Positions 38,373 through 55,740 of a stretch of 64,000 bases of DNA are shown here, piece after piece. The notes under the pieces were generated by a model, which was given only the letters and a program-made list of their open reading frames with translations, was not told where the DNA came from and made no database searches. The first letter of the stretch is position 1; each line of letters starts with the position of its first letter. The stretch is from Fidelibacterota bacterium. GTDB lineage: Bacteria; Fidelibacterota; UBA2242. Both the position numbers and the translations under genes were made by a program. The DNA lies in NCBI GenBank assembly GCA_016783665.1, contig JADHWC010000004.1:1934-65933 (forward strand), written 5' to 3'.

Positions 38373-38993
38373 ATGTTAATTGAGCTTTTCAACCAAGGTG
38401 GACCTTTTATGTGGCCGATTCTGATCCTGTTTGTTTTTGGACTAATGATTTGTTTGGAAAGGGTATACACATTAGCAAAAGCATCTCTGGCTACGAGTCG
38501 CTTTATCCCGAAATTAAACAAAGCGTTGAAAGAAGATGGCGTGGATGCCGCAATGAATGTATGTAAAGAAACACCCGGCCCGATTCCGGAAATTTTTCAT
38601 GCAGGATTATCTCGTGTTGAGCAGGGTATTGAAGTAGTGGAAAAATCGATCGAAAATGCCGGTTCCGTCGAAATGGCATTCCTTGAAAAAGGTATGATCT
38701 GGCTGGCAACCGTTATCACCGTAGCGCCGATGCTTGGATTTGCCGGTACTGTTTCCGGTATGGTTAAAGCGTTTCAGGATATCGCCGCAGCCAACAATAT
38801 TTCTCCGGCTGTCGTCGCATCCGGTATTTCCGAAGCGCTCCTGACCACCTTGTTTGGTCTGATTGTCGGTATTACTATTCAGATTCTCTACAACCTTTTT
38901 ACTGCCCGCGTTGACGGTATTATTGTAGATATGGAAGAGAGTTCCATCAACTTAATAGACACGATCGCAAGTGAAGAATATAAGAAAAAATAA
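38373..38993 (+). CDS. exbB: MotA/TolQ/ExbB proton-channel protein
   Basis: GGPFMWPI, APMLGFAGTVSGMVKAF, GISEALLTTLFGL. Confidence 0.9.
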   Translation: MLIELFNQGGPFMWPILILFVFGLMICLERVYTLAKASLATSRFIPKLNKALKEDGVDAAMNVCKETPGPIPEIFHAGLSRVEQGIEVVEKSIENAGSVEMAFLEKGMIWLATVITVAPMLGFAGTVSGMVKAFQDIAAANNISPAVVASGISEALLTTLFGLIVGITIQILYNLFTARVDGIIVDMEESSINLIDTIASEEYKKK

Positions 38994-39002
38994 GAGCTAC
39001 AG

Positions 39003-39398
39003 ATGAGCTTACTAAAGAAAAAAGGCATACGTGATGCTGAAATGCCGTCGGGTTCGATGGCGGATATAGCCTTTTTGATCCTTATCTTCTTTATGGTTGC
39101 TACAACCATCGACTTGGATAAAGGTATCGGTATCGTTCTTCCCGCCGAAGGCGGAGAGATCGAAATGTCCAGTAAAAATATTACCAATATCCTGATCGAC
39201 GCACGGGGAACGGTCTTGATGGACGATAAAGAAGTGGACATCAAAGAGATTAAAGGTATGGTTGAAACCATTCAGCTCCAAAACCCCAAAATGGTTTTTT
39301 CAGTTAAATCACATCCTCGCACAAAATATAAAGTCTATATTGAGGTTCTGGATCAGTTAAAACAGGCGAACACCCGTGTGATATCTATTGCAGAATAA
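39003..39398 (+). CDS. exbD: ExbD/TolR family protein
   Basis: SMADIAFLILIFFMV transmembrane segment with the conserved Asp. Confidence 0.9.
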   Translation: MSLLKKKGIRDAEMPSGSMADIAFLILIFFMVATTIDLDKGIGIVLPAEGGEIEMSSKNITNILIDARGTVLMDDKEVDIKEIKGMVETIQLQNPKMVFSVKSHPRTKYKVYIEVLDQLKQANTRVISIAE

Positions 39399-39408
39399 GG
39401 AGTAAAGG

Positions 39409-39813
39409 ATGGAATTCAAGAAAAAAACCAAAATGAAAATTTCGATTCCTACGACTGCGATGCCAGATATCATTTTCATGCTGATCTTTTTCTTCATGGT
39501 TTCTTCAGTACTTAGAACGCATGAAGGTTTGAATATTATCATGCCCAAGGCAAAACAGATCGAGAAGCTGGAATCGAGAGTTCACGTGACCTATATATGG
39601 GTTTCCAAAGAGGGGTTGGTCTCAATTGACGACAAACTATATCAGGTGCAAAGTATCCGGAATATCATGTATGAAAAAAGAACCGCCGATCCTCAGCTAA
39701 TTGTATCGATCCGGTCCGATGAACTGGTGCATATGGATTTGATAAGTAAAATCCATAAGGAACTGCGACTGGCGGACGCATTGGCTGTGAATTATTCTAC
39801 AAGAGCAATTTAA
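39409..39813 (+). CDS. exbD: Second ExbD/TolR family protein
   Basis: AMPDIIFMLIFFFMVSS. Confidence 0.9.
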   Translation: MEFKKKTKMKISIPTTAMPDIIFMLIFFFMVSSVLRTHEGLNIIMPKAKQIEKLESRVHVTYIWVSKEGLVSIDDKLYQVQSIRNIMYEKRTADPQLIVSIRSDELVHMDLISKIHKELRLADALAVNYSTRAI

Positions 39814-39822
39814 GGAATAAAA

Positions 39823-40485
39823 ATGATTCTAAGACAAAACCCTGAAGTAAGTCTTAAATTAAAATATCCGCTGGTACTAAGAGTAAGTCTGGTTTTTACG
39901 TTGATAGCGATGATTGTTATGTTTTCTTCCGTACCCAGATCGGGAGGCGGGGATCGAACTCAAACGGAGATCCGAATAGAAATTGAAACAATTGATATTC
40001 CGGTAATTGAACAAAAGATCGAAGCGGCAAAACCACCGTCAAGACCGTCTATTCCCATTGAAGTGGAGGACGATGATCTGCTGGATGATGTTACGATTGA
40101 AATGAGTACCGATATATCCAGCTACGAAGCATGGGACGCGCCGCCGCCACCGCCGGAGGGAGATGATGGACCGCGTGTGAGGTTTATTCCTTATGATGAA
40201 GCCCCGAAGCCCATAGGCGGATTCGCCGCTATTCAGAGAAATGTTGTCTATCCTGAGATTGCCCAGGAAGCTGGAATCGAAGGCACTGTAGTCATACAGG
40301 CATTCGTAAATGAATTTGGTATAGTGACAGATTGTTTGATTCTAAAAGGCGTTCCGAATACCGGTCTGGACGAAGCCGCTGTTGATGCAATTAAAAAGAC
40401 CAGGTTCAAACCGGCAAAGCAGCGCGACAGAAACGTCGGCGTATATATTTCTATCCCTGTTATTTTCAAGCTGCAATCGAATTAA
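39823..40485 (+). CDS. tonB: Energy transducer TonB
   Basis: Single N-terminal TM, Pro-rich PPPPPE, VVYPEIAQEAGIEGTV, FKPAKQR...PVIFKL. Confidence 0.9.
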   Translation: MILRQNPEVSLKLKYPLVLRVSLVFTLIAMIVMFSSVPRSGGGDRTQTEIRIEIETIDIPVIEQKIEAAKPPSRPSIPIEVEDDDLLDDVTIEMSTDISSYEAWDAPPPPPEGDDGPRVRFIPYDEAPKPIGGFAAIQRNVVYPEIAQEAGIEGTVVIQAFVNEFGIVTDCLILKGVPNTGLDEAAVDAIKKTRFKPAKQRDRNVGVYISIPVIFKLQSN

Positions 40486-40564
40486 TTATTTGTTACGAGT
40501 GTAAATACGGAGGACCGGTGCATTAACGGGTAAATAAACCGTAAAAGCCATTTAAGGAATTCAC

Positions 40565-40652
40565 TTGATTCCTAAAAAAACCCTCGAAGTAAATCTGAAA
40601 TTAAAATATCCTCTGGTACTAAAAGCCGGTCTGGTTTTTACCTTATTAGACG
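40565..40652 (+). pseudogene. Truncated 5' fragment of a second tonB paralogue
   Basis: MIPKKTLEVNLKLKYPLVLKAGLVFTLL versus MILRQNPEVSLKLKYPLVLRVSLVFTLI of tonB. Both are preceded by ttaaggaat. Similarity stops near 40652. Confidence 0.75.
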
Positions 40653-40799
40653 AAAAATGCGAATTAAAGAAAAAAAGTTATCCAGATTCTTTATATCTCC
40701 CTTTTGGGTATGTTATACAGTTAGGCTATCATGTATTTAGTACTTTTTCTTTGCAATTAAATGAATAGATTGTAATCTTTGGTATGATATGAAGAAACT

Positions 40800-40818
40800 A
40801 TATAATTACTTGTTGGAC
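40800..40818 (+). other. attI-like or first recombination core site of a cassette pair
   Basis: ATATAAT-TACTT-GTTGGAC has the L-box / 5 bp / GTT layout of attI. TGgTATGAT extended -10 at 40780-40788 upstream. Confidence 0.45.
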
Positions 40819-41608
40819 ACAAAGGGGGAAAACAAATGAAGCTATCATCAGAATTTGCAGTAGTCATAGTAGTGAGTGCCCTCGTGTCGGGTTGCGGGGA
40901 TTCTCCCGCACCGCAGCCGACAAGATTGGGCAGGCCAAAAGCTCCATCCACAGCGGAAGCGCAATCTGACACTGTTTCTCTGCAGACCAAGTCTGACGTT
41001 CTGCCTGGCATCCAAGCATTCTTGGCAAAACATAAGGAGTTTGGATTGCCAAGCAGAACGCAATCTGTGCCCAACTGGGCACAGGGGAAGAGACAACGTG
41101 TTCAGTTTAAGACTGGTCGCAACCTTCTGTTCTATTTGAAGAATGGAAAGGTTGTAACCGTGTATGAAGATACAAAAACTGGAAGTCGCAAGAAAGTTTG
41201 GGGATCACAAGGTGGCAGTGCAGAATATGCCAAAGACATATCAAGACCTGCTACAGGTGCAATACCAAACTACACTATAATCAGTGCCATCAACCTGCTT
41301 GCCGGTGGCAAGCATGCTGATGTTTTGATCCCCAGCCTTTCCAGCACTACTCCGCGTGAAATGCGAAGTAAGGTTGCTTTTGCAATACTGAAAAAAGAAG
41401 GATTGAAGTCCCTTGGAATGTATTCTACACAAGAGGCCTACAAGGCAGACTATTCCTCCTCGTATGCAAAGCAACATCCCAGCGCGAGCAAAGGACGGCT
41501 TGGGTCAATTTCAATGGAAGGACAGTTTAACGACTGAAAGAGTGTCCAACAACCGCTTCACAGTTTTCTCATTCCGCGCGCGGAATGAGAAAACTGTGAA
41601 GCGAAGCG
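40813..41608 (+). mobile_element. Integron-type gene cassette 1
   Basis: 5' core GTTGGACAC (40812-40820) is the exact reverse complement of GTGTCCAAC (41542-41550), which opens the attC just after the stop codon. Confidence 0.85.
40836..41537 (+). CDS. Hypothetical lipoprotein (cassette 1)
   Basis: 233 aa, lipobox LVSG-C, no recognised domain. Confidence 0.75.
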   Translation: MKLSSEFAVVIVVSALVSGCGDSPAPQPTRLGRPKAPSTAEAQSDTVSLQTKSDVLPGIQAFLAKHKEFGLPSRTQSVPNWAQGKRQRVQFKTGRNLLFYLKNGKVVTVYEDTKTGSRKKVWGSQGGSAEYAKDISRPATGAIPNYTIISAINLLAGGKHADVLIPSLSSTTPREMRSKVAFAILKKEGLKSLGMYSTQEAYKADYSSSYAKQHPSASKGRLGSISMEGQFND

Positions 41609-41614
41609 TTATAC
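41544..41614 (+). other. attC site 1 (71 bp)
   Basis: R'' GTCCAAC ... R' GTTATAC enclosing a perfect 50-bp palindrome (41554-41603). Confidence 0.85.
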
Positions 41615-42403
41615 GCTCAACAATAAAAGGGACATAAAATGAGAAAGTTATTTAAGAAAGCAAGACCATTTAAGTCTGTGCTATCATTGAAAGTTGATTT
41701 TTCTTCTGATATGCAAAAGAACTATGGAGAACTTGAATCTGGTCAATCATATCATTTGGGAAGGCGTGAACAAATGATTACATATGACGAGATTAAAGAT
41801 TTTCAATAGAAATGGTCGAAATAGATTTAAAGAAAAATTTAGAAAAAATAACTGACTATCAAATTCCAAGTATAAATGTTGTTAATGAGTATTCTGGAAG
41901 TATTGAACTTGTTCTTACGATTGTATTCGGAACATTCAGCGTTTTAAGTGGCGTTAAAGGATTATATGACAGTATAACGCTCATTAAAAATCAAAGCAGA
42001 AAATTTATTGCCCGGAAATTAAGGAGCAAATATGGAGTAGATTTTAATGTTGATACAAATGTTGAGTATCCAACTATTGAGAGATTTTATCCAGAAGATT
42101 TATTTTTTCATTTTGGTAAACGAGGCATCCTACCATTTCCAATAGCCACAAGTGAAAATCATCGGTCAAGAAGAGATGGCTTTTTTTATTATCTACTCAT
42201 ATCAAATATTGTTTTGTTAATAATACTTGGTTTTATGGTTTATAAAGCAGTCATTCAACAATTTGGATGGTAAATTATTATTTAATAGCGTATAACAAAG
42301 CCAATCAAGCCGACCGCTTCGCTGGATTTGGCTAATGCGCAGTTTTGGCGGTTACATTGTTCGTTAAATCCGCCAAAAATACGGCGGGCTGATGCATTAG
42401 CTG
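41609..42403 (+). mobile_element. Integron-type gene cassette 2
   Basis: 5' core GTTATACGC (41608-41616) is the exact reverse complement of GCGTATAAC (42288-42296), which opens attC 2. Confidence 0.8.
41639..42273 (+). pseudogene. Hypothetical protein with C-terminal TM helix, probably frameshifted (or two small ORFs 41639-41809 and 41812-42273)
   Basis: 56-aa ORF MRKLFKK...IKDFQ-stop followed by a 153-aa ORF MVEIDL. Adding one A at ttttcaatagaaatg fuses them (FQIEMVEID). Confidence 0.55.
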
Positions 42404-42409
42404 GTAAAC
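42290..42409 (+). other. attC site 2 (about 120 bp), distal core degenerate
   Basis: GTATAAC-aaagc-caatcaagccgaccg ... ttttggcgg...ccgccaaaa ... cggcgggctgatg-cattagct-GGTAAAC. Confidence 0.7.
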
Positions 42410-42449
42410 AAACTTCAAAAGTAATTATGTTCTGCAATTAGAATTATTT

Positions 42450-42475
42450 AAAAGGGGCGGTAAGCGCTCCTTTTT
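42450..42475. terminator. Bidirectional intrinsic terminator between the convergent blocks
   Basis: aaaaggggcg-gtaag-cgctcctttttt hairpin flanked by A and T runs. Confidence 0.7.
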
Positions 42476-42505
42476 GATATATAAGAAATACGGCGATGTA
42501 TTTTA

Positions 42506-43405
42506 CTATCCCGGATAATAAGATAAGGTAATAAGATGGGGATGGTTAAAACCTTCCGGCATGAATATAAACGCATAGTCGACACCGAGCCGGTTAATAC
42601 GGATACCAAAACCAAGCGCTCCCCGGTTTACTGATCCGATATGTTCGAAGCCGCCCCGCAATGTAAGCAAATCACGGTAACATATTTCGGCGCCAATCTG
42701 GGCTTTTGCATCACCGGTGATTAAATTGGAACCAAAATTCAATCCGATTGAGCTGTTGAAGGAATCGCCTACAAAAAGTTCCGGTCGTACAATGCCGATA
42801 GTAAGTGTCACAGGCAGACGATTGTTATCGTTAGCTACATCCAGAAACCCCATATTTTGTAGAGAGAATGTCACATCCAACATACTTGGTGCATTCCAGC
42901 GCCCTGCCAGATCAAAAGCGACGCCCTTACCGGTATGTGTATAAAGATGTTCATACAAATATTTTACCGTGCCGCCGATGTCAATTATTTTTATAGGTGA
43001 CCAACAATATCCCGCTGCTATAGCCATGTATTGAGGCTCTATATTTGCCGCTGGTTCATCGGTGGGATAGTCGCGAACCTCGACTCCCGGAATGCGCACA
43101 TAATTCAAGCCGAATCCCAGTGAAGAGTTTTTGAGTGGAATTGATAAAGCCATTGCATCAATGCTGACGTCAGCAACCCAGAAGTGGTGAGACAGGGCAA
43201 GAGCGGTTTGTTCCGAACGAATACCAACCGGGTTTTCAAATATTGCCAACGGAGATTGACCGGCTTGAGAAAATACTGTCATAGTTGCTGCCGATTGGGC
43301 GGAGGATGGTATTTTTAAAAATGCCATACCGGTATTCTGAATTTCGGCGTTTGCCGTGCTGAGTATAAGCAGAATTCCTGAGATGGCGACGTTTATTTTA
43401 TTCAT
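42506..43405 (-). CDS. porV: PorV/PorQ-family outer-membrane beta-barrel
   Basis: Signal peptide, GMAFLKIPSSAQSAA, AIFENPVG, alternating beta-strand pattern, GFNHPHLITLSY. Confidence 0.75.
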   Translation of the reverse strand: MNKINVAISGILLILSTANAEIQNTGMAFLKIPSSAQSAATMTVFSQAGQSPLAIFENPVGIRSEQTALALSHHFWVADVSIDAMALSIPLKNSSLGFGLNYVRIPGVEVRDYPTDEPAANIEPQYMAIAAGYCWSPIKIIDIGGTVKYLYEHLYTHTGKGVAFDLAGRWNAPSMLDVTFSLQNMGFLDVANDNNRLPVTLTIGIVRPELFVGDSFNSSIGLNFGSNLITGDAKAQIGAEICYRDLLTLRGGFEHIGSVNRGALGFGIRINRLGVDYAFIFMPEGFNHPHLITLSYYPG

Positions 43406-43414
43406 TTTATTTAC

Positions 43415-44341
43415 CTAAAATTTGAATTCCCAGGAAAATACATGGGTGCTGCCTTCACCGGCTAAACCGATAAGGGCGCTGTAGTCAATGTGAGTGTTAA
43501 TGTTTTTTATGAAACCATACGCCAGTCCGGCCCCGAATGTCGGGTGAATATTATCCATTCCCATACGAATGTAAAGGATGTCGCTGACCAGGTATTCTCC
43601 GCCAAAGTGTACGCGGTTATCATTTTTGTCGGAAATTTCCACATCCCCGCTAAAAGTAAACGCATTGTTTTGTTTGTATGCTAGACCGATTTTCAAGATT
43701 TGAGGAAACACGTCGGTGTAATTTCCACCTTTTTCGCTAAATAATTCTTGAGTATTCCAGTTATAACTGGCGCCGATATCTTTTAGTTGAACGCCAACAA
43801 TAACCCGATCAAATGGTTTTATCATAACACCGATGTCAAACCCCAGCCCACTGCCGGTTATTCCCAACATGTTGTGACTGAGTATTTTAAAGTTCAGTCC
43901 CACCGAAAAACGACGGTGAAAGGCATTGGAAAATGAAAGTATAATCGCGTTTTCCCCGGTTTCGTAAACTTCGTCGGGCTCACCGGAAAAATTGCGGCCC
44001 TGGATGTCGCTGACGCCGGCATGCATCCATGCTATTGAAATTCCGGCGCTGGGTTTTAGCGGCAGGGCGATCCCGACATAATGCAGCTGACGATCAAGGC
44101 TTAGAAAATAATAGGTAAGTGATAAATGACGCTCGGACAGGTATGATAATCCGGCGGGATTGTAATATGCCGCAAATCCGTTTTCGCTGTCGGCAACACC
44201 GGAGTTGCCCATTCCCAGCGCTCGCGCGCCAAGCCCCATACGTAAATACGAGCCCCCATATCCGGCATTGTCACCGGTAGAGGCTAATGCCAATGAAAGG
44301 AATGTAATCAGAATCAATATTATAAATTTTAATGTTTTCAT
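43415..44341 (-). CDS. porV: PorV/PorQ-family outer-membrane beta-barrel
   Basis: GSYLRMGLGARALGMGNSGVA, AAYYNPAGL, GLGFDIG, C-terminal HVFSWEFKF. Confidence 0.82.
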   Translation of the reverse strand: MKTLKFIILILITFLSLALASTGDNAGYGGSYLRMGLGARALGMGNSGVADSENGFAAYYNPAGLSYLSERHLSLTYYFLSLDRQLHYVGIALPLKPSAGISIAWMHAGVSDIQGRNFSGEPDEVYETGENAIILSFSNAFHRRFSVGLNFKILSHNMLGITGSGLGFDIGVMIKPFDRVIVGVQLKDIGASYNWNTQELFSEKGGNYTDVFPQILKIGLAYKQNNAFTFSGDVEISDKNDNRVHFGGEYLVSDILYIRMGMDNIHPTFGAGLAYGFIKNINTHIDYSALIGLAGEGSTHVFSWEFKF

Positions 44342-44347
44342 AGATTA

Positions 44348-45946
44348 TTATTTGACAATAATCAGTTTTGTCCAGTAAGATTTCTCTTTATCATCGTCTT
44401 TTTTGGTCAATTTACAAAAGTAGGTGCCGTTTGCCACCAGGTCTCCGGCTCTGTTCCGTCCATTCCACGTGATGCTGTTGTCGCCGATATGGATGATATG
44501 ATAATGTTCGCTCTCATACACAAGATCCATAGCAAAATCATATATTTCAAGAGACACGGTTGCCGAATTTTCCAGGTAATATTGTACTCTGACATGACCA
44601 TCGCCATTAAGAACATTATGAATGGATGGAGCAAATGGATTTGGATAAGCGTAAATTGCCGGTTGACTTGGTAAAGATGTGGACAGAAACTTACGATAAA
44701 TTTTCCATTGGATTGTATCGACTGCTGTTTTTGCGATACCGTCGGATGTTCCAAGCCACAAATATGTTGTATCTTCATCTTCAAGAGAATCAACGCCGGC
44801 AGCGTAAACATCGTGTGAAAATATGTAGCTGTTGCTTTTCTCGTCAACCATCGGCTTGTATAGCGCCCAGTTGTCCCCGTCAATAGATTTGAAAAGCCCC
44901 TGTTCTGTACAGGCGTAAACGATTGAATCTTTAAATGCAAAATTATAGATACGTTCGCCAACCAATGTGCGGGACCAGGTTAAACCGCCATCAGTGGTTT
45001 TACAGGCTGCCCGTGTTTCTCCGGCGCCTTCGGCGGTCAGGGCGGCTACCCAGATGGTTTCATCACCCCGCCAGAGTTGTCTGCCCAGCGCAATTATGAA
45101 ATTTCCGGCAAGATTTGAATTCTGAGCATTATAATGTCGCCAGCGGATACAGTCATCAGATTCGACTAATCCCAGGTTTACACCGTTAGCGGTGCCGGCC
45201 CAGACAGTGTCGCCATAGGCAAGCACACCGAAACCTTTATGGTTATGATTTCCCTCCGGCGGATCACGGGGGTTGATCTCGTAGTCTATTTCTTCGCCGC
45301 AAATGAACATGTCATTATCATCACCGGGAAGGGGAAGGCGTTCCCAGGTGGCGCCATAATTCCGGCTGCGGCGTAATCCGCCGGCCCAGCTGGTGATATA
45401 TATAAAAATGGAATCGTCGTCAATTCTACAGAGAGAAATATCCCATGTCGTGTTGTTTACCGGAGTAACGACCGGAAGAAATTCAATAGTATCGCCGCCC
45501 CAGACTTCGTAATCATCATCTGATTCGTCGATTGGCTGCGGAACAAATGTCCATGTTTCTCCGTAATCTTTGGAATATGCCAACCCGCCGCCGGTTTGTT
45601 GTGAACCTAAAACTGTGGTGGAATCAAAAACGCCGGCTACCCATATTATCGAATCAAGTGTGGCAAGCGCGGAAATTCCACCCCGGGGCATATTAGAGTC
45701 GCCAACATAGTAACTGGAGAACGATTTACCGAAATCAGTTGTTTTGCTGAGACCGCCACCTGTCGCGAACCATGTAATGGTTGTATCTTCCTGCATGGCG
45801 ATCTGGGTCACACCGTTGCTGGCAAGTCCCTCATAGACATTTTCCGGGTCATCAATCGTAGGTTTGGATAACCGAAAAGCTTGTCCATAGCTAACCGAAA
45901 CAAGCAGCATAATAATAGATATAAGTATTATCCGTCGTTTGTTCAT
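44348..45946 (-). CDS. Secreted Asp-box (BNR) beta-propeller protein with FlgD-like/T9SS-type C-terminal domain
   Basis: Repeats SKDYGETW, SRNYGATW, TTDGGLTW, SIDGDNW. CTD IYAYPNPF...SLEIYD...ITWNGRNRAGDLVANGTYFCKL...KLIIVK. Confidence 0.8.
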   Translation of the reverse strand: MNKRRIILISIIMLLVSVSYGQAFRLSKPTIDDPENVYEGLASNGVTQIAMQEDTTITWFATGGGLSKTTDFGKSFSSYYVGDSNMPRGGISALATLDSIIWVAGVFDSTTVLGSQQTGGGLAYSKDYGETWTFVPQPIDESDDDYEVWGGDTIEFLPVVTPVNNTTWDISLCRIDDDSIFIYITSWAGGLRRSRNYGATWERLPLPGDDNDMFICGEEIDYEINPRDPPEGNHNHKGFGVLAYGDTVWAGTANGVNLGLVESDDCIRWRHYNAQNSNLAGNFIIALGRQLWRGDETIWVAALTAEGAGETRAACKTTDGGLTWSRTLVGERIYNFAFKDSIVYACTEQGLFKSIDGDNWALYKPMVDEKSNSYIFSHDVYAAGVDSLEDEDTTYLWLGTSDGIAKTAVDTIQWKIYRKFLSTSLPSQPAIYAYPNPFAPSIHNVLNGDGHVRVQYYLENSATVSLEIYDFAMDLVYESEHYHIIHIGDNSITWNGRNRAGDLVANGTYFCKLTKKDDDKEKSYWTKLIIVK

Positions 45947-47016
45947 GGTATTATCGTAAATTCATTATCGCTGACATCAAAGCGGTTAGGATTATCGGGG
46001 TCGGATATTCTTACTTTACAGTGACTGGAAGAAGCATAGGGTACCGACCAGTCGTAATAACCGGTGGAGGCGGTAACAGTTGCAATATTTTGATAACTGG
46101 GTGTTGTTGCATTGTTGTTAGTCGTATATTCCAGTTTAACATTACTAATATAGGCGCTTTTCCATTCGATCCGGTAAGTGTGAGTTGTATATAATGTATC
46201 GGAATAATTAGGTGAAAGCAGAGTAATACCGGGGTTTGTTATATTTGCTTTTAATGTATCGCTGGTAGCGCCGTGAATGTCTTTTGCAACGAAGTAAAAG
46301 ATGTATAATCCCTGTAATTTACTATTGGGATTTGATGGTTGATAAACAGTATACACTCCGTCGTTTGCGTATTGATCGCCGTAATCACCGGCTGGCCCTG
46401 TATCGCTCAGATAGAAAGAAGGGTCTGATATAAATTCACCGTCCGGTCGTAAAACGGAATATGTTGCTGAAGCGATGTCTTGAGAACCTTGCTGGTCTGT
46501 AATCCTCAATTTAAAAATCAGTGTATCTCCTTTTTCAAAGCTGTCGGACACAGACAATGGAAATATTTCCGGCGGGCTGTTCGGAGCGACCCGCTCCGAT
46601 TCGGTTTCGATATCGCTGGAATTTCCGTCACAGTCAAAAGCTTGAACGGTGATCCGGTAATAGCCATCATTATCCGCAAGTGTTGTGGAATCGACGAGAT
46701 ATGAGAACACGTCATCCCGGTTGATAATATCCAGAGGCGGACCAACGTCTACCAATTGTCCGGTAAGAAACAGGGGCTCCTCCACCGAATTAACTGAATC
46801 TTTGCGATATAGATAAAACACCACCGAATCAATTGTTTCCCATCCTTGGGGATCGGTGACTTCGGATGAAATAAACAATGATTTGTTCAATTGGGAATAA
46901 TGTAATGTTACATTTTCGATGACCGGATTGGAAGACGGCGCCGTCTTCTGCCCATTGTTGATACAGGACACCATTATCATAAACAGGATCGATAATATAT
47001 ACAAAAATTTTTTCAT
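45943..47016 (-). CDS. Lipoprotein with acidic Ig-like (choice-of-anchor X like) domains and Ser/Thr-rich C-terminal domain
   Basis: Lipobox MVSC, LSDTGPAGDYGDQYANDGVYTV, ITLLSPN...YRIEW...CKVRISD. Confidence 0.65.
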   Translation of the reverse strand: MKKFLYILSILFMIMVSCINNGQKTAPSSNPVIENVTLHYSQLNKSLFISSEVTDPQGWETIDSVVFYLYRKDSVNSVEEPLFLTGQLVDVGPPLDIINRDDVFSYLVDSTTLADNDGYYRITVQAFDCDGNSSDIETESERVAPNSPPEIFPLSVSDSFEKGDTLIFKLRITDQQGSQDIASATYSVLRPDGEFISDPSFYLSDTGPAGDYGDQYANDGVYTVYQPSNPNSKLQGLYIFYFVAKDIHGATSDTLKANITNPGITLLSPNYSDTLYTTHTYRIEWKSAYISNVKLEYTTNNNATTPSYQNIATVTASTGYYDWSVPYASSSHCKVRISDPDNPNRFDVSDNEFTIIP

Positions 47017-47017
47017 G

Positions 47018-47857
47018 TTATCTTACTGCCAGTGCTGCCCATTCGTCTTGAAACATCTCATCGTCTAAAATCAAGCCGTAATTTAGTACATTCATCTTAA
47101 ATATGTCATATTCATCTTTTAAAATGCCGCTAAAAATACAGGGAGGTATTTTGCCGCGGCTATGTATATTAGCAAGAAGAGCTAAATTAGGATTCCTTTC
47201 AATATTGCTAAGTATTAGGTCGATGTTAAAATCACTATGTCGTGTGATATCGCCAATCGTTAGGCTATAACGGTCATGAATATGATTTAGTTCCATGTGC
47301 TCTCGGAAATTGTCCTCGACAAACGGATCAATGTCCCATGCCTGTACGAATTGGGCGCCGATCTTCAACGCGGCAATTGTAAGAATACCGGTTCCGCAGC
47401 CGGCGTCCAGAACTGTCATGCCGGGTTTAAGGTGTTTTTCCATCAGGAGCAGCGCCATTTGTGTTGTTGGATGGGTTCCGGTGCCAAATGCCATTCCCGG
47501 TTTAATAGCAATTCGGACCGCTTCGGAGCCTCCATATGTTTTCCAGTAAGGATATATCGCAATATTCGGACTGAGTTGAATAGGTTGGAAATATTCCTGC
47601 CAGTTTAGATGCCAGTCCTGGTTGGTGATGATTTCCGTTTCGTGAGGCGATGGAGATCCGGGGAATAATTCTGTTATTTCCCGCATTTTTTTTGCGATTA
47701 TCTCAGATTCGGAAAGATTGAAAAATGCGTCAAAGCTTTTTTCCTGTTCGATCATACCAAGGCAGGACAAACCACTGATCAAAGCCATCAGGGATTCGTG
47801 GTCATAATCGCCTTTTTGGAAATGATATTTCAGCCATTTATCGGGCGTACGGTTCAT
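47018..47857 (-). CDS. prmA: Ribosomal protein L11 methyltransferase
   Basis: DWHLNWQEYFQP, IKPGMAFGTGTHPTT, LDAGCGTGIL. Confidence 0.92.
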   Translation of the reverse strand: MNRTPDKWLKYHFQKGDYDHESLMALISGLSCLGMIEQEKSFDAFFNLSESEIIAKKMREITELFPGSPSPHETEIITNQDWHLNWQEYFQPIQLSPNIAIYPYWKTYGGSEAVRIAIKPGMAFGTGTHPTTQMALLLMEKHLKPGMTVLDAGCGTGILTIAALKIGAQFVQAWDIDPFVEDNFREHMELNHIHDRYSLTIGDITRHSDFNIDLILSNIERNPNLALLANIHSRGKIPPCIFSGILKDEYDIFKMNVLNYGLILDDEMFQDEWAALAVR

Positions 47858-48780
47858 TGTGTACCTATGCTTGAAGTATAGATATAATCATACAATACCT
47901 GTCCGACTACGAGCAGACTACGGGGACTGCATTTGTCGGGCGTATCCATTGTCGTATGCCAGAAATTCTGATAGCGGTTCGGATATTCGAAATCGATGAG
48001 ATCGACCGAGGGAATACCGGCATGCCGGATTAACATAACGTGGTCATCATGAATATAGCCACCGAACCGATGCTGAAATTCCGTAAAGTTTCGTTTTTTT
48101 GCAATGTTCCACAATTGTTTTATCAGCCCGGGATGGCTTTGGTAGGATGTTCGCTCGATGGGAATGGTCAGCTCCTTATCGCCGATCATATCGATAATGA
48201 TTGCTTCGGTTGGTTTGGGAATTGGTAAATGTTTTGCAAAATACTCGGATCCCATACAGTAGTATTCTAGTGATCCGGAGTAACCATAATCTTCACCGTC
48301 AAACAACACCAGATAGACTGTTCTGCTCGGACGTTGCCGGGATAAATGTTCCGCCAGATGCATCAGCACGGCAATCCCGCTGGCGCCGTCGTTGGCTCCT
48401 AGAATCGGTTGTTTGCGTTTCTGAATGTCCGGATCGAGATCGGCGCGTGGGCGCGTATCCCAGTGAGCGCCGATCAATAATGGATTTCCGGCGTCGAGAT
48501 GAAATCCTGCAATAATATTGGTCAATGTGAACGTGACATTATCTTGCGGAATATCCTGTTCAAAAGTTTGTTGGATAATTGTGTCCGATAAAGGCGAGAA
48601 AAAGGCTGTGTAATAGACAATTGCTTTGGAATGTCCCGGCGATCCCGGATGACGGTAGCCAATATCGCACTGTTCTATTAGATATTGATAAGCTGTGTCT
48701 CCATCAAAGGAGTAATATTGACCTCCACAATTGAAGACCAGTAGCAACGGTATAAGAATTATTGAAAAATATTTATACAA
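47854..48780 (-). CDS. M28-family Zn metallo-enzyme lipoprotein (glutaminyl cyclase / aminopeptidase like)
   Basis: GAHWDTRP, GANDGASG, FDGEDYG, IDMIGD, DDH. TTG start at 48780 with GAGGA RBS gives MYKYFSIILIPLLLVFNC (lipobox). The track's longer start overlaps sprA. Confidence 0.85.
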   Translation of the reverse strand: MYKYFSIILIPLLLVFNCGGQYYSFDGDTAYQYLIEQCDIGYRHPGSPGHSKAIVYYTAFFSPLSDTIIQQTFEQDIPQDNVTFTLTNIIAGFHLDAGNPLLIGAHWDTRPRADLDPDIQKRKQPILGANDGASGIAVLMHLAEHLSRQRPSRTVYLVLFDGEDYGYSGSLEYYCMGSEYFAKHLPIPKPTEAIIIDMIGDKELTIPIERTSYQSHPGLIKQLWNIAKKRNFTEFQHRFGGYIHDDHVMLIRHAGIPSVDLIDFEYPNRYQNFWHTTMDTPDKCSPRSLLVVGQVLYDYIYTSSIGTQ

Positions 48781-48781
48781 T

Positions 48782-51700
48782 TTATCCTCGAATGGCAATA
48801 TTAATATCAAATCCGCCATTCCGGTTGATCCGTTTGCCGGTTCGACGGTTAAAACTTTCACCGTAGGAATAAAATAATCCCCCGGTGACTTTCTTTGTAA
48901 AAGAGTAACTGATGCGAGGCTCGATTTTCCAATTCCGGTTTTCTTGCTGTACGGTGAATTTTGCATCCGCTGTATTTCTGCCGCGGGTCTTTGAAGAACT
49001 GTAATCAAAATTCATTGTAAAATTCATGCTGTTTTCCAGCCGTTTATCTTTCAGGAAGGGCAGCGGAATCGTAAAACCACCTTTTTTCTGGTAGTTCAGA
49101 GATGCGTTGATATTCTGTTCGTTAGTGATACTTGTGCCGCCGTTCGCCTGGTTATTGATTGTTTTTCCCTGGGTCATGCGGATATTGGAATTGATATTGT
49201 TTTTAAACTGCATGGATAAGCCGACAAGAGGTGAAAAATAAAGTTTGTATGAGGAATTTTGTTTTTCACCATTTCGGTAAACTACCGCTTCCTTGCCAGA
49301 GAAGCCGTGGTCGAGAGACAGTTTCTTAAAGAATTTCGATATGAAACCTATTTTTTCAATCTGGGTCCAGTTGAGTGTCCAGCCCGGGAAAGGTATACCG
49401 CCTTTGCCGTTTTTATCGAATGTAATATAATCCCGGGTGAGATTATGGCTCTTTTGTCCCTGGGATTCAGCCCAGGACATATTCTGTCCGAAAGACAAAG
49501 AAGTGCTGATATTTTTTGTCACTTTAATGCCCGAACGCATGGAGACATCGGAGTTCAAGGCAAGGTTATTGACGTTTAAGCCAACTTCATCTGTCAGAAT
49601 TTCCAGTCCGGGATCCGAAGACAACCCGGTCCGGTATAATAAACCGGGTGTTCCTACACGACCCAGGTTTCGGTTGTTACGGCTGGTGGAATAGCTGAAT
49701 TGGATAGGCTGAATTCTATCTAGGGCTTTGTAGAGATACTCCAAAAGCTTGATCTCTTTTTTATTCTCCTCTGTGCTCTTTTCCGGTGTTTCCGGCGTTT
49801 CCGTTTGGGATTGTGATGAACGGCTGCGACCTGAACGTCCGGATGATGGACGGCTCGATGATTTTGCGGATTTTGGAGTATAAAAAGATTTCAGGATCAA
49901 TTTGGGGTCCAGGCTGAATGAACTGGATATCCGCGACTGGTTATTTAATTGATCGACACTTTTAGTGTTGCTGTTTACCGGTTCGCTCCAATTATAACCG
50001 GCGTTGTAATTTATACTCGGTGAAAACCAGCTGAATAGTTTGAGTGAAAATGAAGCCGAATAACTTTCGGTAATATTAATTGGAATACCGGGGTTGAGTT
50101 CTTTGACGGCTCGCAGTTTATCGTTTCGAAAATCGATCATGCTGTTTTTCATCTTTCGGGAATAATTAACATTCAGGTTGTCGAATATTTTATAAGCGCC
50201 TGTGATGGATCGATTCAACCCAAGGGCGTATGTCTCGGTTGCCTGGCTTTTCGAAAGACGCGGGACTTTGATGGATTTACTTTCGGCGGCGTCCATGGAA
50301 AAATCCAGGCTGCTGGGTGTATAGTACCATCGGAGATCACCAAGTTTGTCGCCCAGAACCGGAACGTTTTGCATCCATTTAAAGGGCTGAATGTAATTAT
50401 CGCGGCCAAAGGGGATTTTATATGATACATTACCCTTATAGGTCTGGGATTCTCTGTTTTTGTCCTGAACAGACGAGCTTTTCGACCATTGAGCGTTTAA
50501 CTGAACGTTGATTTGGTCAATAGTATATTTTGTCAACCAGAAATCGGAGCCCCGTTTACTGAAAGATGTATTCATGCCGTATGATTCCGAGAGATTTAAA
50601 ATACTGTCCGGGGCGCTGTCTCCTGTAAGAATGTCGGTACCGGGGACATACTTGGGAGCGCTGACTTTGTTGGAGAACGATCCTGAAACCGGCAGTCTTA
50701 ATCCCCACCCGGCAGGCGTTAATTTATCAAGTGATACGCTACCGCGGGCGGTAATATTGCGACTGGTGTTTAATCCGGAAGGCTGCAGGCTGGGACGCTG
50801 TTCAACTGTATGGAAATCGGCATCTTTGCGGTCAACGCCAAGGTCAAATTTCATCAAATCGGCGATAGTAAGCGACATTTTAATCCGGTAAGCCACGCCC
50901 GGATCGCGGCGGACTTCGGACAGGCGCAATTCATCAAGCCAGACCTCACCGAAGACAGTGTTGTCATATCGTGGTAATGGCGTGATTTCATCAAAATCAT
51001 CCAGCGCATATCTCTGGTTAATGACGCCGATCTCTAATTGTTGAACACGGGAAAGCGCCGGAGCGCCGTAAATGATTATTTCCTTGCCGGTGTATTCACC
51101 GTTTTTCACTTCCTTATATCGCCGCTGGGCGATCTCTCCTTTATCATCTCGTATAATGCGAAGTTGTTTGGGAGCGTCTTCATTTCCCGGGAATTCGTCT
51201 TCGCTGTTGTAACTTTTTAGACTGGTGATAAAATCAAGATCGATTTCCATATAATTCTTTTTGTCCCATTCGGGATAGATGGGTTGCCGGTATTCATAAA
51301 ACTGGGGATTTTGACCCCCGCGACCAAATCGCACGAAAAATTGAAGCGGGGTTTTTTCGCCCTCGCGGAAATATTTTGTGCGGGTGTGTATGTTATGTCC
51401 GTTGATATACAGTTTCATCTTCTTATACGTAATAAAACTTGCCTCTTCACGCAATACTTTTTTAGCCGCCGCTATTTCTCCCGGTTTGATACCCTGGCTT
51501 CCATCGAACCACAGCACCAGCGACTGTTCTTTCATACGGATTTCATTGATCCGGTCATACTCACCTTGAACGCCTTTGGGGGCTTTATAAGTATCGGGAT
51601 TGTCTTCAGAATTGATTACGCTTACCGCAAATGCGCCCTCTTTTTTGATATAATCGCCGCCCTCTTCCGGCGCGACGCCCATTTCTTCCCATTCGTTGCC

Positions 51701-54700
51701 CACCATTTCGATCTTGGCAATCATAACCGTATCTTGCCGGGCGATGCCGTCCATCCAGAGCCGGCAAGCTTCAATTGTTTGCCAACTAACATCGCCATCG
51801 CTGTGGATTTTCTTAAATTCAGAAAGAGGGATGCGGTATAATTTCCATTCGGTCCCGGTCCGTCCGGCGATATATTTATTATCAATTGTTTCGTCCAGTG
51901 AAAAATCGATCGTATAGTAATCATCTAAAAGGTCTACTTCATAATTCCGGTTCAAATCTTCCGTATCCGGCATGTATCCGCTGGCATCCTTCTTACTGTT
52001 TTCAGTTCCATTAATTTGACGATAGTCTGAAGAACCTTCGCTCCATTTCCAGTTGTCGGAATGGGGATCAGCCGGATCGCGCTTATATTTGATAAGCGTC
52101 GAGTCGTCCCAATTCAATTGACCATATTTAGTAATGATAAATTCACTTGTATCGGGAATACCGTCTATACCGGTGTCCTCGCCATCATCCAAAAGGTCGT
52201 TTCCAAATTTAAAACCGGCTTCCGCTTTGTCTTCGGTATCCAGCGTTTTATTGGGGATATAGTCTTCGCTGATTTGTCCCAGGTCAACATGAAGTTGTCC
52301 GGAGTTTCCCCGAACCCAGATTTCAAGGAATTTAGTCTTGGATTGGTCGTAATAACTGGTAGGGAAATAATAGGTGATCCCGCCCCATGCTTCTTCCTGG
52401 GGAATGACGCCGTCTGTCACGGCAATTGACCAATCGGGATCGAGCGCCATAACCATGATTTCGGTGATATTGTTTTGAGCCCGGGTGCTGACCTCTTTAT
52501 TCGGCCAGATGTTTTTGGTCGCGACGCCGCCAAAGGGATTGTACCAGAACATAAAACCCCGCTGGTTTTCGGATTTGCCGAGCGGTGTTGCTGAGTGCGC
52601 CCAGTACCGCTGCATGATCGGAGGCGATGTAATACGCTTGGAGCCCTCAAAATCATCAATGAATCCAACCCCGTTTGGATCGCCGGTATCGTCGTTGCTG
52701 ATAGTGTTGGAATTGGGGTTCACCCTGGCGATTTCACCCTCGAATGTTATAGTGGAAAGCTTGTCCGTTTCAATTAGCGGCAGCCAGTTTGCCGCCCGGG
52801 TCAGAAAGCGCAAATCTTTATTGAAACGCCCGTTCAAGTCCCAGACAAAATTTCGCATCGGTTCATAACCGACATCGACTTTTTCGTCAACAACCGACTT
52901 GCTGAAATAGAGAGCCGTACCGCCGATAAATGAATTTTCACCGAAATCGTATTGAGCGCGTGCTCCTAAAATGGTCTTTTTATCCAGCTGGAAAAACTGG
53001 TTGCGTTCGTATTTAATATCAAGATTTGCATCCGGGTTCAGGGCGTCCTGGCGAAGAAGCGTGAGGGTTCCGGTGAAATAATCGATGGTGTAATCGACGC
53101 CTCGAGTGAGAGTTTCGCTGCCCAGGTTAACAGACTCACTGCCTTCGATAACCATGGGACCGAGATTGATCATTGAACTGCGGTTTTCGTATTTATAAAC
53201 GATCTTGAATTTTGAATCTGACGTGATATCACTTAAACGGGTTCGGTTACTGTCGTACATTGCGGAACAGTTATACAGATCGCTTAGCTTAGAATTGTAC
53301 ATACCGGATTCATCGTTTTCTTCGTATTGGAAGGGGCGCAGGAATGGAAGCCAGAGCTCGCCCATTTGCAGATTAATGATTGATGGATTATCGAGATCAA
53401 TAATATCATCCGGGGTCGGATTGCCGTTCTTGTCCTTCAAATCCAGCCCAAATTTTTGCAGGAAGTTGACGCCGTCCTGCGGATCGCGCTCTTCGTCACC
53501 GGTTTGACCATGAATGTAAACTACGCTGAGATCAAATCCTTCCGGGTCGATGCCGGAGGCGCCGAGAGAATATATGTTTTTAAATTCCAGATCCCAGCAA
53601 GGGTGGCTGGGAATCATTTGCTCCGGCTTGATTAACTTTAAGATAATGTCGGTCGTGTCCGTTAGTGGTCGGTCCCAATCACCGTATTCCTTATTAGAAA
53701 CAGTGGTCCCGCCAGCGTCAACAACCCTGTAAGTGACGGCGAGTATTTCACTTTCCTGCACCTGGGTTGACAGGCGAATAAATCCAAGATTCAGGTTGGC
53801 TATGTATTCCTGATCTAACTCAAGTCTTTTGAATACGCGTTGTTCCATATAAACACTGTCGGCATTTTCAGTATCTCCCGGATCTACATAAGCATATCCA
53901 TATACACTGCCGGCGGGATTTGTACTAGGAGAAATGGATTTGTACACTTCCAGATCAGCAATAATACGATCGGGGTTATAGGTAAAGCGTCCGTCGTTTT
54001 CAAAAAATCCTTCATAGAACGTGCTGCGAAAGTCATAATCGAGGAAGTAATAGAGATTCCGGCGGTAATCATAATCTTTGATAGAGTTGCTGGTTTGTTG
54101 AGCGCCGCCGTCAACACTCAATTTTTCTTTCTTGCCCTTTTCCACGCTGGCGATGGCTGTGACGTCAAGCCCGCCCAATTTCATGAGGGCTTTCAATCCG
54201 AATAAGCCACTGTTTTTACCGGAGAAGGTTACAAATTGTGTTCCCGGCAAGGACAGGGCGACGTTACCGGCTTCGACTTTTTGAACGATGTCGTCTTCTT
54301 CGCCGGTATAGATGATCTTTAATGCGTTTTCGAAATCGAAGTCCCGTTCACTGTCCTGGTCAACCAGAATACTGATTTTGTCACCGATTTTGCCTTCAAT
54401 GTTGAGCTGCTGTTTCTGATCAACAATAAACGTGGTGGATTGCCCCTCGCGATAACCGCTGGCTACCTGTGACCGTTTCTGGTTCTGCAGGCGACCGTTG
54501 ATGTTGACATTTCCCGAGACCCTCAATGATACTCGTTGTCCGGCAATATCCGCTCCGATCAGTTCGATCTTTTCAGAGCGCACGGCAGATTTTTCTTTTG
54601 AAAAATTTTTCCGGCATATGTCGCTTAACTGAGTTTGAAGGTGGTTGCGTGTTTTTAACCTGTAAAATGTTTCCAGTGAGACACCCCGGGGTGACACAAT

Positions 54701-55012
54701 GTACGCTCCTTCAAATTGATCGCTGAAGATAAGATTTTTCCCTGTATAATCGAGGTCCTTCTCGGATTTAACGCCCCTGAAAGTAACATTGAGAAAATTT
54801 GCATTTAGCTGTTGATAATTTGGAGACATGAACGACAACCCCCGCGGGCGGTCAAGGCTGATGGAACTTAATCGGTGAGATATCCAATCTACCTGAATAG
54901 GAAACACCACTCCCCGCGCTTCAGCAACCTCTTCCTGAGCGTGTAATGAATATAATGATGCCGATAAAATCAGCAGATATATAAATTTCCTGATACGATG
55001 CAGTGTCGTCAC
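48782..55012 (-). CDS. sprA: SprA-like T9SS translocon (cell surface protein SprA)
   Basis: 2076 aa, signal peptide, QKQQLNIEGKIGDKI, DFDFENALKI, VEAGNVALSLPG, GVDYTIDYFTG, VWLDELRLSE, C-terminal GFDINIAIRG. Confidence 0.88.
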   Translation of the reverse strand: MTTLHRIRKFIYLLILSASLYSLHAQEEVAEARGVVFPIQVDWISHRLSSISLDRPRGLSFMSPNYQQLNANFLNVTFRGVKSEKDLDYTGKNLIFSDQFEGAYIVSPRGVSLETFYRLKTRNHLQTQLSDICRKNFSKEKSAVRSEKIELIGADIAGQRVSLRVSGNVNINGRLQNQKRSQVASGYREGQSTTFIVDQKQQLNIEGKIGDKISILVDQDSERDFDFENALKIIYTGEEDDIVQKVEAGNVALSLPGTQFVTFSGKNSGLFGLKALMKLGGLDVTAIASVEKGKKEKLSVDGGAQQTSNSIKDYDYRRNLYYFLDYDFRSTFYEGFFENDGRFTYNPDRIIADLEVYKSISPSTNPAGSVYGYAYVDPGDTENADSVYMEQRVFKRLELDQEYIANLNLGFIRLSTQVQESEILAVTYRVVDAGGTTVSNKEYGDWDRPLTDTTDIILKLIKPEQMIPSHPCWDLEFKNIYSLGASGIDPEGFDLSVVYIHGQTGDEERDPQDGVNFLQKFGLDLKDKNGNPTPDDIIDLDNPSIINLQMGELWLPFLRPFQYEENDESGMYNSKLSDLYNCSAMYDSNRTRLSDITSDSKFKIVYKYENRSSMINLGPMVIEGSESVNLGSETLTRGVDYTIDYFTGTLTLLRQDALNPDANLDIKYERNQFFQLDKKTILGARAQYDFGENSFIGGTALYFSKSVVDEKVDVGYEPMRNFVWDLNGRFNKDLRFLTRAANWLPLIETDKLSTITFEGEIARVNPNSNTISNDDTGDPNGVGFIDDFEGSKRITSPPIMQRYWAHSATPLGKSENQRGFMFWYNPFGGVATKNIWPNKEVSTRAQNNITEIMVMALDPDWSIAVTDGVIPQEEAWGGITYYFPTSYYDQSKTKFLEIWVRGNSGQLHVDLGQISEDYIPNKTLDTEDKAEAGFKFGNDLLDDGEDTGIDGIPDTSEFIITKYGQLNWDDSTLIKYKRDPADPHSDNWKWSEGSSDYRQINGTENSKKDASGYMPDTEDLNRNYEVDLLDDYYTIDFSLDETIDNKYIAGRTGTEWKLYRIPLSEFKKIHSDGDVSWQTIEACRLWMDGIARQDTVMIAKIEMVGNEWEEMGVAPEEGGDYIKKEGAFAVSVINSEDNPDTYKAPKGVQGEYDRINEIRMKEQSLVLWFDGSQGIKPGEIAAAKKVLREEASFITYKKMKLYINGHNIHTRTKYFREGEKTPLQFFVRFGRGGQNPQFYEYRQPIYPEWDKKNYMEIDLDFITSLKSYNSEDEFPGNEDAPKQLRIIRDDKGEIAQRRYKEVKNGEYTGKEIIIYGAPALSRVQQLEIGVINQRYALDDFDEITPLPRYDNTVFGEVWLDELRLSEVRRDPGVAYRIKMSLTIADLMKFDLGVDRKDADFHTVEQRPSLQPSGLNTSRNITARGSVSLDKLTPAGWGLRLPVSGSFSNKVSAPKYVPGTDILTGDSAPDSILNLSESYGMNTSFSKRGSDFWLTKYTIDQINVQLNAQWSKSSSVQDKNRESQTYKGNVSYKIPFGRDNYIQPFKWMQNVPVLGDKLGDLRWYYTPSSLDFSMDAAESKSIKVPRLSKSQATETYALGLNRSITGAYKIFDNLNVNYSRKMKNSMIDFRNDKLRAVKELNPGIPINITESYSASFSLKLFSWFSPSINYNAGYNWSEPVNSNTKSVDQLNNQSRISSSFSLDPKLILKSFYTPKSAKSSSRPSSGRSGRSRSSQSQTETPETPEKSTEENKKEIKLLEYLYKALDRIQPIQFSYSTSRNNRNLGRVGTPGLLYRTGLSSDPGLEILTDEVGLNVNNLALNSDVSMRSGIKVTKNISTSLSFGQNMSWAESQGQKSHNLTRDYITFDKNGKGGIPFPGWTLNWTQIEKIGFISKFFKKLSLDHGFSGKEAVVYRNGEKQNSSYKLYFSPLVGLSMQFKNNINSNIRMTQGKTINNQANGGTSITNEQNINASLNYQKKGGFTIPLPFLKDKRLENSMNFTMNFDYSSSKTRGRNTADAKFTVQQENRNWKIEPRISYSFTKKVTGGLFYSYGESFNRRTGKRINRNGGFDINIAIRG

Positions 55013-55081
55013 CCTGTATATTTCGGTTAATATGGTTTATTGTTATTTAAAACAGACGTAACAAATTGTTCGGGTGACACC

Positions 55082-55690: not shown

Positions 55691-55740
55691 GGCTTTAATG
55701 GAAAGTTGAAATAATCGTTCGATCAAAAATGCCAAAAATG

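Follow-up and report, generated by a model that had tools for sequence, protein, structure and literature searches.

The window, a 64,000-nucleotide stretch of DNA from an uncultured marine bacterium of the phylum Marinimicrobia (SAR406), also named Fidelibacterota, contains an operon led by sprA, the gene for the outer-membrane translocon of the secretion system called type 9 (T9SS). An exbB-exbD-exbD-tonB unit, here called the Ton unit, lies tail to tail with it. We conclude that the operon represents a real, undescribed variant of type 9 secretion and that its Ton neighbour is coincidental. As judged from gene content, type 9 secretion that lacks the known motor and ring seems to be genuine and to extend across the phylum: SprA is present in 60 out of 61 genomes of the phylum, and GldL, GldM and GldN are found by profile in none of them. 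We consider it likely that the two units are unrelated, one a motor-less type 9 module and the other a housekeeping Ton system, and that a recent rearrangement brought them tail to tail.

The source genome (G000) is a 2.38-Mb metagenome-assembled genome (MAG) of 121 contigs with an estimated completeness of 92%, and the window is located on contig C51. Together with 60 relatives it forms the phylum set of 61 genomes from 11 families. The region downstream of sprA (16-18 kb) was compared in 40 relatives and the upstream region (8 kb) in 20. A downstream locus was regarded as informative when it contained at least 2.5 kb of further sequence past the last barrel gene of the operon, which was the case for 31 relatives. 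For comparison with other lineages we used 80 public SprA loci from other Marinimicrobia, KSB1, Calditrichota, Ignavibacteria, Kryptoniota and others.

The sprA operon and its conservation

The secretion unit (42506-55735, minus strand) is formed by ham1/rdgB followed by seven genes, listed here in the direction of transcription.

55082-55735, minus strand: ham1/rdgB, non-canonical nucleoside triphosphate pyrophosphatase, directly upstream of sprA (Pfam Ham1p_like, 201 bits)
48782-55012, minus strand: sprA, type 9 outer-membrane translocon, 2076 amino acids (TIGR04189, 823 bits, cut-off 200; Pfam SprA_N)
47854-48819, minus strand: M28-fold lipoprotein, homologue of the Bacteroidota-type glutaminyl cyclase (Pfam Peptidase_M28, 107 bits)
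47018-47857, minus strand: prmA, ribosomal protein L11 methyltransferase, a cytoplasmic housekeeping gene inside the operon (Pfam PrmA, 176 bits)
45943-47016, minus strand: lipoprotein of 357 amino acids with three predicted tandem immunoglobulin (Ig)/macroglobulin-like beta-sandwich domains (AlphaFold2 model, pLDDT 87.4)
44348-45946, minus strand: PorZ-like protein, 532 amino acids, with a signal peptide, one BNR/Sortilin-type beta-propeller and a T9SS C-terminal domain (CTD)
43415-44341, minus strand: PorV/PorQ-family barrel 1, 308 amino acids (NF033709, 101 bits, cut-off 90)
42506-43405, minus strand: PorV/PorQ-family barrel 2, 299 amino acids, the last gene of the conserved block (NF033709, 97.9 bits, cut-off 90)

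The seven genes from sprA to barrel 2 overlap or sit at most 10 nt apart, and it is therefore reasonable to speak of one operon. Promoter and terminator scans at the junction of the two units and upstream of sprA returned sites no commoner than in shuffled sequence. SprA matches the Flavobacterium johnsoniae protein (PDB 6H3I) with an E-value of 7e-59, although it is about 330 residues shorter than Bacteroidota SprA (2076 versus 2403 amino acids). The ham1/rdgB gene has a housekeeping function and accompanies sprA.

The order sprA, cyclase, prmA, lipoprotein, PorZ-like gene, barrel, barrel is kept in 35 of the 40 relatives. Upstream, ham1 and sprA are neighbours in all 20 phylum loci and in many of the public SprA loci, and rdgB-sprA-cyclase is retained in essentially all phylum-level loci. 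Most relatives share the position of prmA, and the lipoprotein after it is kept within the taxonomic family and order. The PorZ-like gene precedes the two barrels in 35 out of 40 relatives and also in Calditrichota. Among the 80 public loci the same block is found in other Marinimicrobia and in Calditrichota, the KSB1 loci have sprA-cyclase, in some cases with prmA, and the Ignavibacteria, Kryptoniota and Bacteroidota-labelled loci have sprA alone. The conserved block stops at barrel 2, and the gene that follows varies from genus to genus. In distant families the genes past the last barrel (with orthologues on G000:C26) were considered as parts of the system and rejected, as they resemble a deacetylase-like protein, pdxJ and an asparaginase-like protein.

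The gene behind sprA starts either at ATG 48819 or at TTG 48781, the latter 1 nt past the sprA stop codon, and its product has the lipobox LVFNC. Its matches to solved glutaminyl cyclases, 6QQL from Porphyromonas gingivalis (E-value 1.5e-42), 7CJE (1.7e-42) and 6QRO (1.2e-39), span residues 37-315 of 321, i.e. the full length of the protein. By family it is an M28-fold glutaminyl cyclase of the P. gingivalis PG2157 type, with the corresponding predicted activity. The cyclase gene lies directly behind sprA, overlapping it or starting 1 nt past its stop codon, throughout Marinimicrobia, and likewise in loci from KSB1 and Calditrichota (L105-L150 and L084-L103); the pair is not seen in Ignavibacteria or in Bacteroidota-labelled loci.

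For the second lipoprotein no Pfam or NCBIfam family was found, and the fold search gave generic Ig/macroglobulin-domain matches only; its Cys18 is invariant in the alignment. Barrel 1 also matches the PorV2 (81 bits), PorQ (52 bits) and PorV (39 bits) models, as well as F. johnsoniae PorV (PDB 6H3I_F, E-value 2e-4), and both barrels stay below the cut-off of the PorV and PorQ equivalog models.

The PorZ-like protein has sub-threshold Pfam matches to FlgD_ig and CHU_C, on the CTD, and to BNR, and the NCBIfam PorZ model aligns at the C-terminal CTD end alone, with 33 bits against a cut-off of 260. The AlphaFold model, built from a 33-sequence alignment, has a pLDDT of 90.5. Its best PDB match is PorZ (5M11, E-value 9e-14) with a TM-score of 0.38, a fold-level similarity between one propeller in the window protein and two in PorZ. 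Because PorZ is the best structural match, this CTD-bearing protein is probably a component of the machine rather than a passenger.

An earlier, sequence-only reading of the window had described a single operon of sprA, two PorV-family barrels, a CTD-bearing cargo protein and two lipoproteins. The span that it gave, 38373-55012, is right, with exbB starting at 38373 and sprA at 55012 on the minus strand, and the profile scores (823 bits for sprA, 101 and 98 bits for the barrels) confirm the translocon and both barrels. The single operon agrees with the short gaps, but prmA had been overlooked. There are indeed two lipoproteins, but one of them is the glutaminyl cyclase homologue (6QQL), and the CTD is present where it was reported, but on a protein for which the match to 5M11 speaks against the cargo role.

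Outside the window, the sortase gene porU is found full length at G000:C63 (NF033707, 740 bits, cut-off 420), and PorU exceeds the cut-off in 35 of the 41 genomes surveyed for it. Approximately 82 open reading frames (ORFs) of the source genome end in the sorting domain (jackhmmer from two CTD seeds), and there are 16 PorV-family barrels. A second, longer PorU-like gene (G000:C80:12789-18706, 1636 amino acids, 255 bits) directly precedes genes for a PorV-family barrel and a small lipoprotein, and this PorU-like/PorV pair is kept in many relatives. Taken together, the CTD ORFs, the PorV barrels and the PorU-like/PorV pair occupy about 4% of the coding capacity of the 2.4-Mb genome. Such an investment argues strongly for a working export route.

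The system is thus similar in several ways to the Bacteroidota T9SS, as known from F. johnsoniae SprA-PorV (6H3I, 8GL6) and P. gingivalis PorU, PorV, PorQ and PorZ. SprA, the PorV family and PorU are clear homologues, dozens of cargo proteins share the same Ig-like C-terminal domain, and both a propeller-plus-CTD protein, with PorZ as best fold match, and a Bacteroidota-type glutaminyl cyclase are present. In contrast to Bacteroidota, the genes for translocon, cyclase and attachment share one operon here, and many of the 16 PorV-family paralogues have a cargo gene and a TonB-dependent receptor as partners. A further difference lies in the energy chain. Of the GldLM/PorLM motor and the GldKN/PorKN ring (PDB 6YS8; PMC10994853, PMC12421860) nothing is detectable, neither with four profile models nor by direct search: GldL, GldM and GldN are missing from the phylum set and the source genome has no true GldK.

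Probable absence of the motor and ring genes

No match to GldM (TIGR03517) or GldL (TIGR03513) was found in the source genome, and none of the 61 genomes has a hit over the cut-off for either model. The independent Pfam model GldM_1st (PF12081) is likewise negative in 61 out of 61. GldN (TIGR03523) gave no match at E<=0.01 in the 61 genomes, in a search with no control gene inside it; on the control GldN described below this model reaches 143 bits. For GldK the search covered the source genome, where two proteins with an FGE-sulfatase domain were found, the better one with 78 bits against a cut-off of 350. Genes resembling L, M or N flank neither of them. The better match (G000:C110, 301 amino acids) was considered as porK and rejected, since it is surrounded by genes for glycosidases and for a membrane protein similar to spermidine synthase.

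The same models recognise a canonical gldK-L-M-N operon of Flavobacteriales type, from the bin G094 described below, which served as positive control, with 373 bits for GldK, 157 for GldL, 252 for GldM and 143 for GldN. When these control proteins were compared by phmmer with all ORFs of the source genome, nothing was found for L, M or N at E<=10. A crude topology screen of the source genome for gene pairs encoding first a two-helix and then a single-helix protein returned one pair only, a lipoprotein before a PorV paralogue. The large lipoproteins were looked over as a list, with no profile scan, and no obvious SprE-like tetratricopeptide repeat (TPR) protein was seen among them. Forty high-quality relatives, including the one-contig genome G055, likewise show no motor, and GldM is missing, according to one model, from CP070638, a Fidelibacterota genome that was deposited as a chromosome.

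The sequence-only reading had noted that porK, porL, porM and porN are missing from the window and had proposed a SprA-PorV translocon without the PorKLMN ring, while allowing that the genes may lie elsewhere. The first two statements are in line with the searches in the source genome and in the phylum set; the reservation is not, as no PorK-N set turned up in the rest of the genome. Because SprA and PorU are so easily recognised, we regard a true absence of GldKLMN as very probable on the profile evidence.

The alternative would be an ordinary T9SS with a fast-evolving motor, in which GldL and GldM, and perhaps GldK and GldN, are present in a form that has diverged beyond the reach of the profiles. 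Motor proteins are small, lie in the membrane and evolve fast, and weak GldL matches (E-value 4.5e-5) do occur in two relatives. However, these matches are in ORFs of 555-641 amino acids and cover only the low-complexity half of the model. In general, the weak GldL and GldM matches of the relatives could be set aside as short, low-complexity model parts in long ORFs, or as frames with stop codons. In the 61 genomes the two GldM models and the single models for GldL and GldN all stay below their cut-offs, whereas SprA reaches 823 bits and PorU 740 bits. Neither phmmer with a real operon nor the topology screen found a motor pair, and the FGE-sulfatase gene is not located beside L- or M-like genes. 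We therefore consider a divergent motor improbable.

GldM was also surveyed with one model in 44 further genomes that carry SprA (other Marinimicrobia, KSB1, Calditrichota, Zixibacteria, Ignavibacteria, Kryptoniota and bins labelled Bacteroidota), and 43 of them lack it. According to this survey KSB1, Calditrichota, Ignavibacteria and Kryptoniota may also be motor-less, and the pattern is probably wider than Marinimicrobia. The single positive genome (G094, a 0.9-Mb bin labelled Flavobacteriales NAT99) was rejected as a true exception, since its sprA contig is Marinimicrobia-like. It combines a canonical gldKLMN operon (L184, G094:C28) with a contig of the Marinimicrobia type, rdgB-sprA-cyclase-prmA-propeller-barrel (L143, NZUB01000052.1), and its SprA resembles F. 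johnsoniae SprA no more closely than the window SprA does. G094 is probably a mixed bin, although the guanine-cytosine contents of 31% and 33% do not decide the matter.

The neighbouring Ton unit

The Ton unit has the gene order exbB-exbD-exbD-tonB that is known from the Fibrobacteres-Chlorobi-Bacteroidetes (FCB) group, and the genes themselves are ordinary. Between it and barrel 2 lies an insertion.

38373-38993, plus strand: exbB (Pfam MotA_ExbB, PF01618, 104 bits)
39003-39398, plus strand: exbD 1 (Pfam ExbD, PF02472, 75.6 bits)
39409-39813, plus strand: exbD 2 (Pfam ExbD, 57.6 bits)
39823-40485, plus strand: tonB, 220 amino acids (Pfam TonB_C, PF03544, 66 bits; TIGR01352, 67 bits)
40535-42376: lineage-specific insertion of 1.84 kb (1,842 bp) between tonB and barrel 2, from blastn against the same-genus genome G001
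40565-40768, plus strand: 5' fragment of a second tonB, an ORF of 67 amino acids at the start of the insertion, its first 28 amino acids 64% identical to the TonB N-terminus
40836-41537 and 41812-42273: orphan ORFs in the insertion, with no Pfam or NCBIfam matches

All four Ton genes pass their Pfam cut-offs, so that the neighbour is the motor that had been named in the sequence-only reading. The view that only an inserted cassette separates it from the secretion operon also holds: the insertion is missing from G001, where the flanks are 93% identical and about 140 bp separate the two units. The tonB fragment suggests that the inserted DNA came from another tonB locus or recombined at one. This fragment, together with the tail-to-tail position beside a secretion operon in four genera, is what sets the unit apart from other FCB-group Ton systems.

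The adjacency is restricted. It is found in four of the 31 informative loci (G001, G012, G005, G020) and, by coordinates, also in G002 and G017; with the source genome this makes seven genomes from four genera (g1, g3, g6, g10) of one family. In the other 27 informative loci exbBD-tonB is not adjacent, and these include another g3 genome, six other genera of the same family and all other families. Neither the 80 SprA loci of other lineages nor the 20 upstream regions contain it. Being convergent, the units are not co-transcribed.

The Ton set is single in the source genome, with one ExbB, two ExbD and one TonB by phmmer and jackhmmer, and jackhmmer from the TonB C-terminal domain retrieves only itself. 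At E<1e-50, jackhmmer finds about 27 ORFs similar to TonB-dependent receptors. With so many receptors to serve, the presence of a single Ton set needs no further explanation. The simplest reading is that the unit is an ordinary housekeeping system that has come to lie beside the sprA operon by recent local rearrangement, and the neighbourhood as such is no evidence for a role of TonB in secretion.

A connection of another kind is seen in the rest of the genome. A TonB-dependent receptor, a CTD-protein gene and a PorV-family barrel occur as repeated triads on the following G000 contigs.

C20:52114-59486, receptor/CTD/PorV triad
C38:3-6684, receptor/CTD/PorV triad
C69:9089-23095, receptor/CTD/PorV triad
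C89:11093-18074, receptor/CTD/PorV triad
C91:4155-8026, receptor/CTD/PorV triad
C95:8853-16702, receptor/CTD/PorV triad

The layout is similar to that of polysaccharide utilisation loci, but with surface proteins exported by the T9SS and with carrier barrels of their own. Probably the secreted surface proteins feed Ton-dependent uptake, and secretion and Ton cooperate in feeding and not in energising the pore.

Energy for secretion and its meaning

The preferred reading, two unrelated units, can be put as a sequence of steps, by analogy with F. johnsoniae and P. gingivalis. Unit 1 would be the conserved outer-membrane module of Marinimicrobia type 9 secretion. The roughly 82 CTD proteins would cross the inner membrane via Sec, bind a PorV-family carrier docked at the lateral opening of the SprA barrel and exit together with the carrier. 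The sortase PorU, encoded elsewhere, would then process or attach the cargo, helped by the PorZ-like/PorQ-like pair. With the known chain of GldLM/PorLM motor and GldKN/PorKN ring absent, carrier release would draw on another source or on none that is known. Unit 2 (38373-40485, plus strand) would be the single Ton system with the evident job of powering the receptors. We infer both these steps of transport and that the two units function independently.

Several observations weigh against this reading. The absence of the motor was established by profiles, which a very divergent GldL or GldM could escape, and in a source genome that is a MAG of 92% completeness. The profile search for motor and ring covered GldK, GldL, GldM and GldN. 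We infer the function of the secretion module from its conservation and from the number of cargo proteins. In Bacteroidota, the release of the carrier-substrate complex from SprA requires energy, and GldLM is the energy chain (PMC10994853); a motor-free system would need a different release mechanism. Finally, all 41 genomes surveyed for it keep an ExbB-type gene, and in G045, 95% complete and with both SprA and PorU, it is the sole member of the MotA/ExbB family.

The last two points are those that favour a translocon powered by the neighbouring ExbB-ExbD-ExbD-TonB motor, in which TonB would pull SprA or the PorV-family carrier and so free the carrier-substrate complex. The lack of GldLM and GldKN calls for another energy source if release is as costly as in Bacteroidota, an ExbB-type gene is the one MotA/ExbB-family member present in all 41 genomes surveyed, and the adjacency does recur in seven genomes of four genera. 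Against it stand the 27 informative loci and the 80 loci of other lineages in which the units are apart, the convergent gene orientation and the single Ton set with its many receptors. In addition, a TonB box would be expected within the first ~50 residues of SprA, and this part contains no conserved motif in the phylum alignment. The earlier suggestion of a TonB-energised translocon thus loses its ground in the synteny, with linkage in four out of 31 informative loci, all in one family, and in none of 80 elsewhere, and the accompanying caution that the adjacency could be a coincidence agrees with this. We think TonB-driven release unlikely. We give equally little credit to its broader form, a high-traffic, outer-membrane-only T9SS of Marinimicrobia (SprA, PorV-type carriers, PorU and the PorZ-like protein) whose Ton system, as the only proton-driven transducer retained in all genomes surveyed, serves receptors and pore alike.

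Besides ExbB, the source genome has two flagellar-type MotA genes. The first is part of a cluster (G000:C75:626-4516) of MotA, MotB with plug and OmpA domain, a membrane protein of 485 amino acids with the FliF C-terminal ring part, and FliG in complete form. This cluster has TPR proteins on its flanks and no further flagellar gene in its surroundings, and it looks like a flagellum-independent rotor/stator module. Clusters of the same type are found at L185:5117-11664, L186:10802-17300, L187:7295-13500, L188:5531-12000 and L193:5964-11600.

The second (G000:C43:20806-24457) is an orphan MotA of 283 amino acids with 208 bits to MotP, which has no adjacent MotB in the family of the source genome; G032, from another family, has an intervening MotB. 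Two outer-membrane-barrel-like proteins (264 and 615 amino acids, no family matches) come after it, and it lies between ftsB and an amidase gene. This locus type recurs at L189:9038-12500, L190:9492-13000 and L191:5649-9800.

In G044, which belongs to another family, one MotA-type and two MotB-type genes adjoin PorU (G044:C101, L194:8657-15630), an arrangement not seen in the other genomes checked. The flagellar gene flhA is found in 26 of the 61 genomes, near an extra MotA class (119 bits) that the source genome lacks. Its distribution is patchy even within one family, and flagella therefore seem to have been lost repeatedly in the phylum.

Either the MotA-MotB-FliF-like-FliG cluster or the orphan MotA could in principle be the proton-driven stator that powers secretion. 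Both are present in the source genome, whose genus has no FlhA, the gene order of both is kept in several families, and the MotA-MotB-MotB genes of G044 adjoin PorU. However, neither has a conserved linkage to sprA, porV or porU, and G044 is a single case. G045 manages with no MotA-type gene besides ExbB, and the setting of the C43 cluster among cell-division and cell-wall genes (ftsB, amidase, murI) suggests an envelope or division role. Such a stator is a poor candidate for the energy source. The probability that the three rivals leave goes to a system with no dedicated trans-envelope motor, or with a motor of another kind, next to a Ton unit that is unrelated to it.

Full-text literature searches found no description of a T9SS in Marinimicrobia or of a motor-less T9SS. 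Systematic detection that demands the full gene set reports the T9SS in Bacteroidetes only (PMC4793230); two papers note on the basis of BLAST that further FCB phyla may have T9SS genes (PMC5837995, PMC11285876).

In current models the GldLM/PorLM motor and the GldKN/PorKN ring are core to type 9 secretion. Either the pore of the Marinimicrobia works without the known energy chain or another machine powers it, and both cases bear on the mechanism and on the evolution of the system. The outer-membrane module may be the ancestral core, to which Bacteroidota added the motor in connection with gliding. Two cultured organisms, Fidelibacter multiformis from the phylum itself and Caldithrix abyssi from Calditrichota, with the same operon, make the question testable. 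Annotation tools that require the full gene set overlook a route that is probably the principal one for secretion in abundant ocean bacteria.

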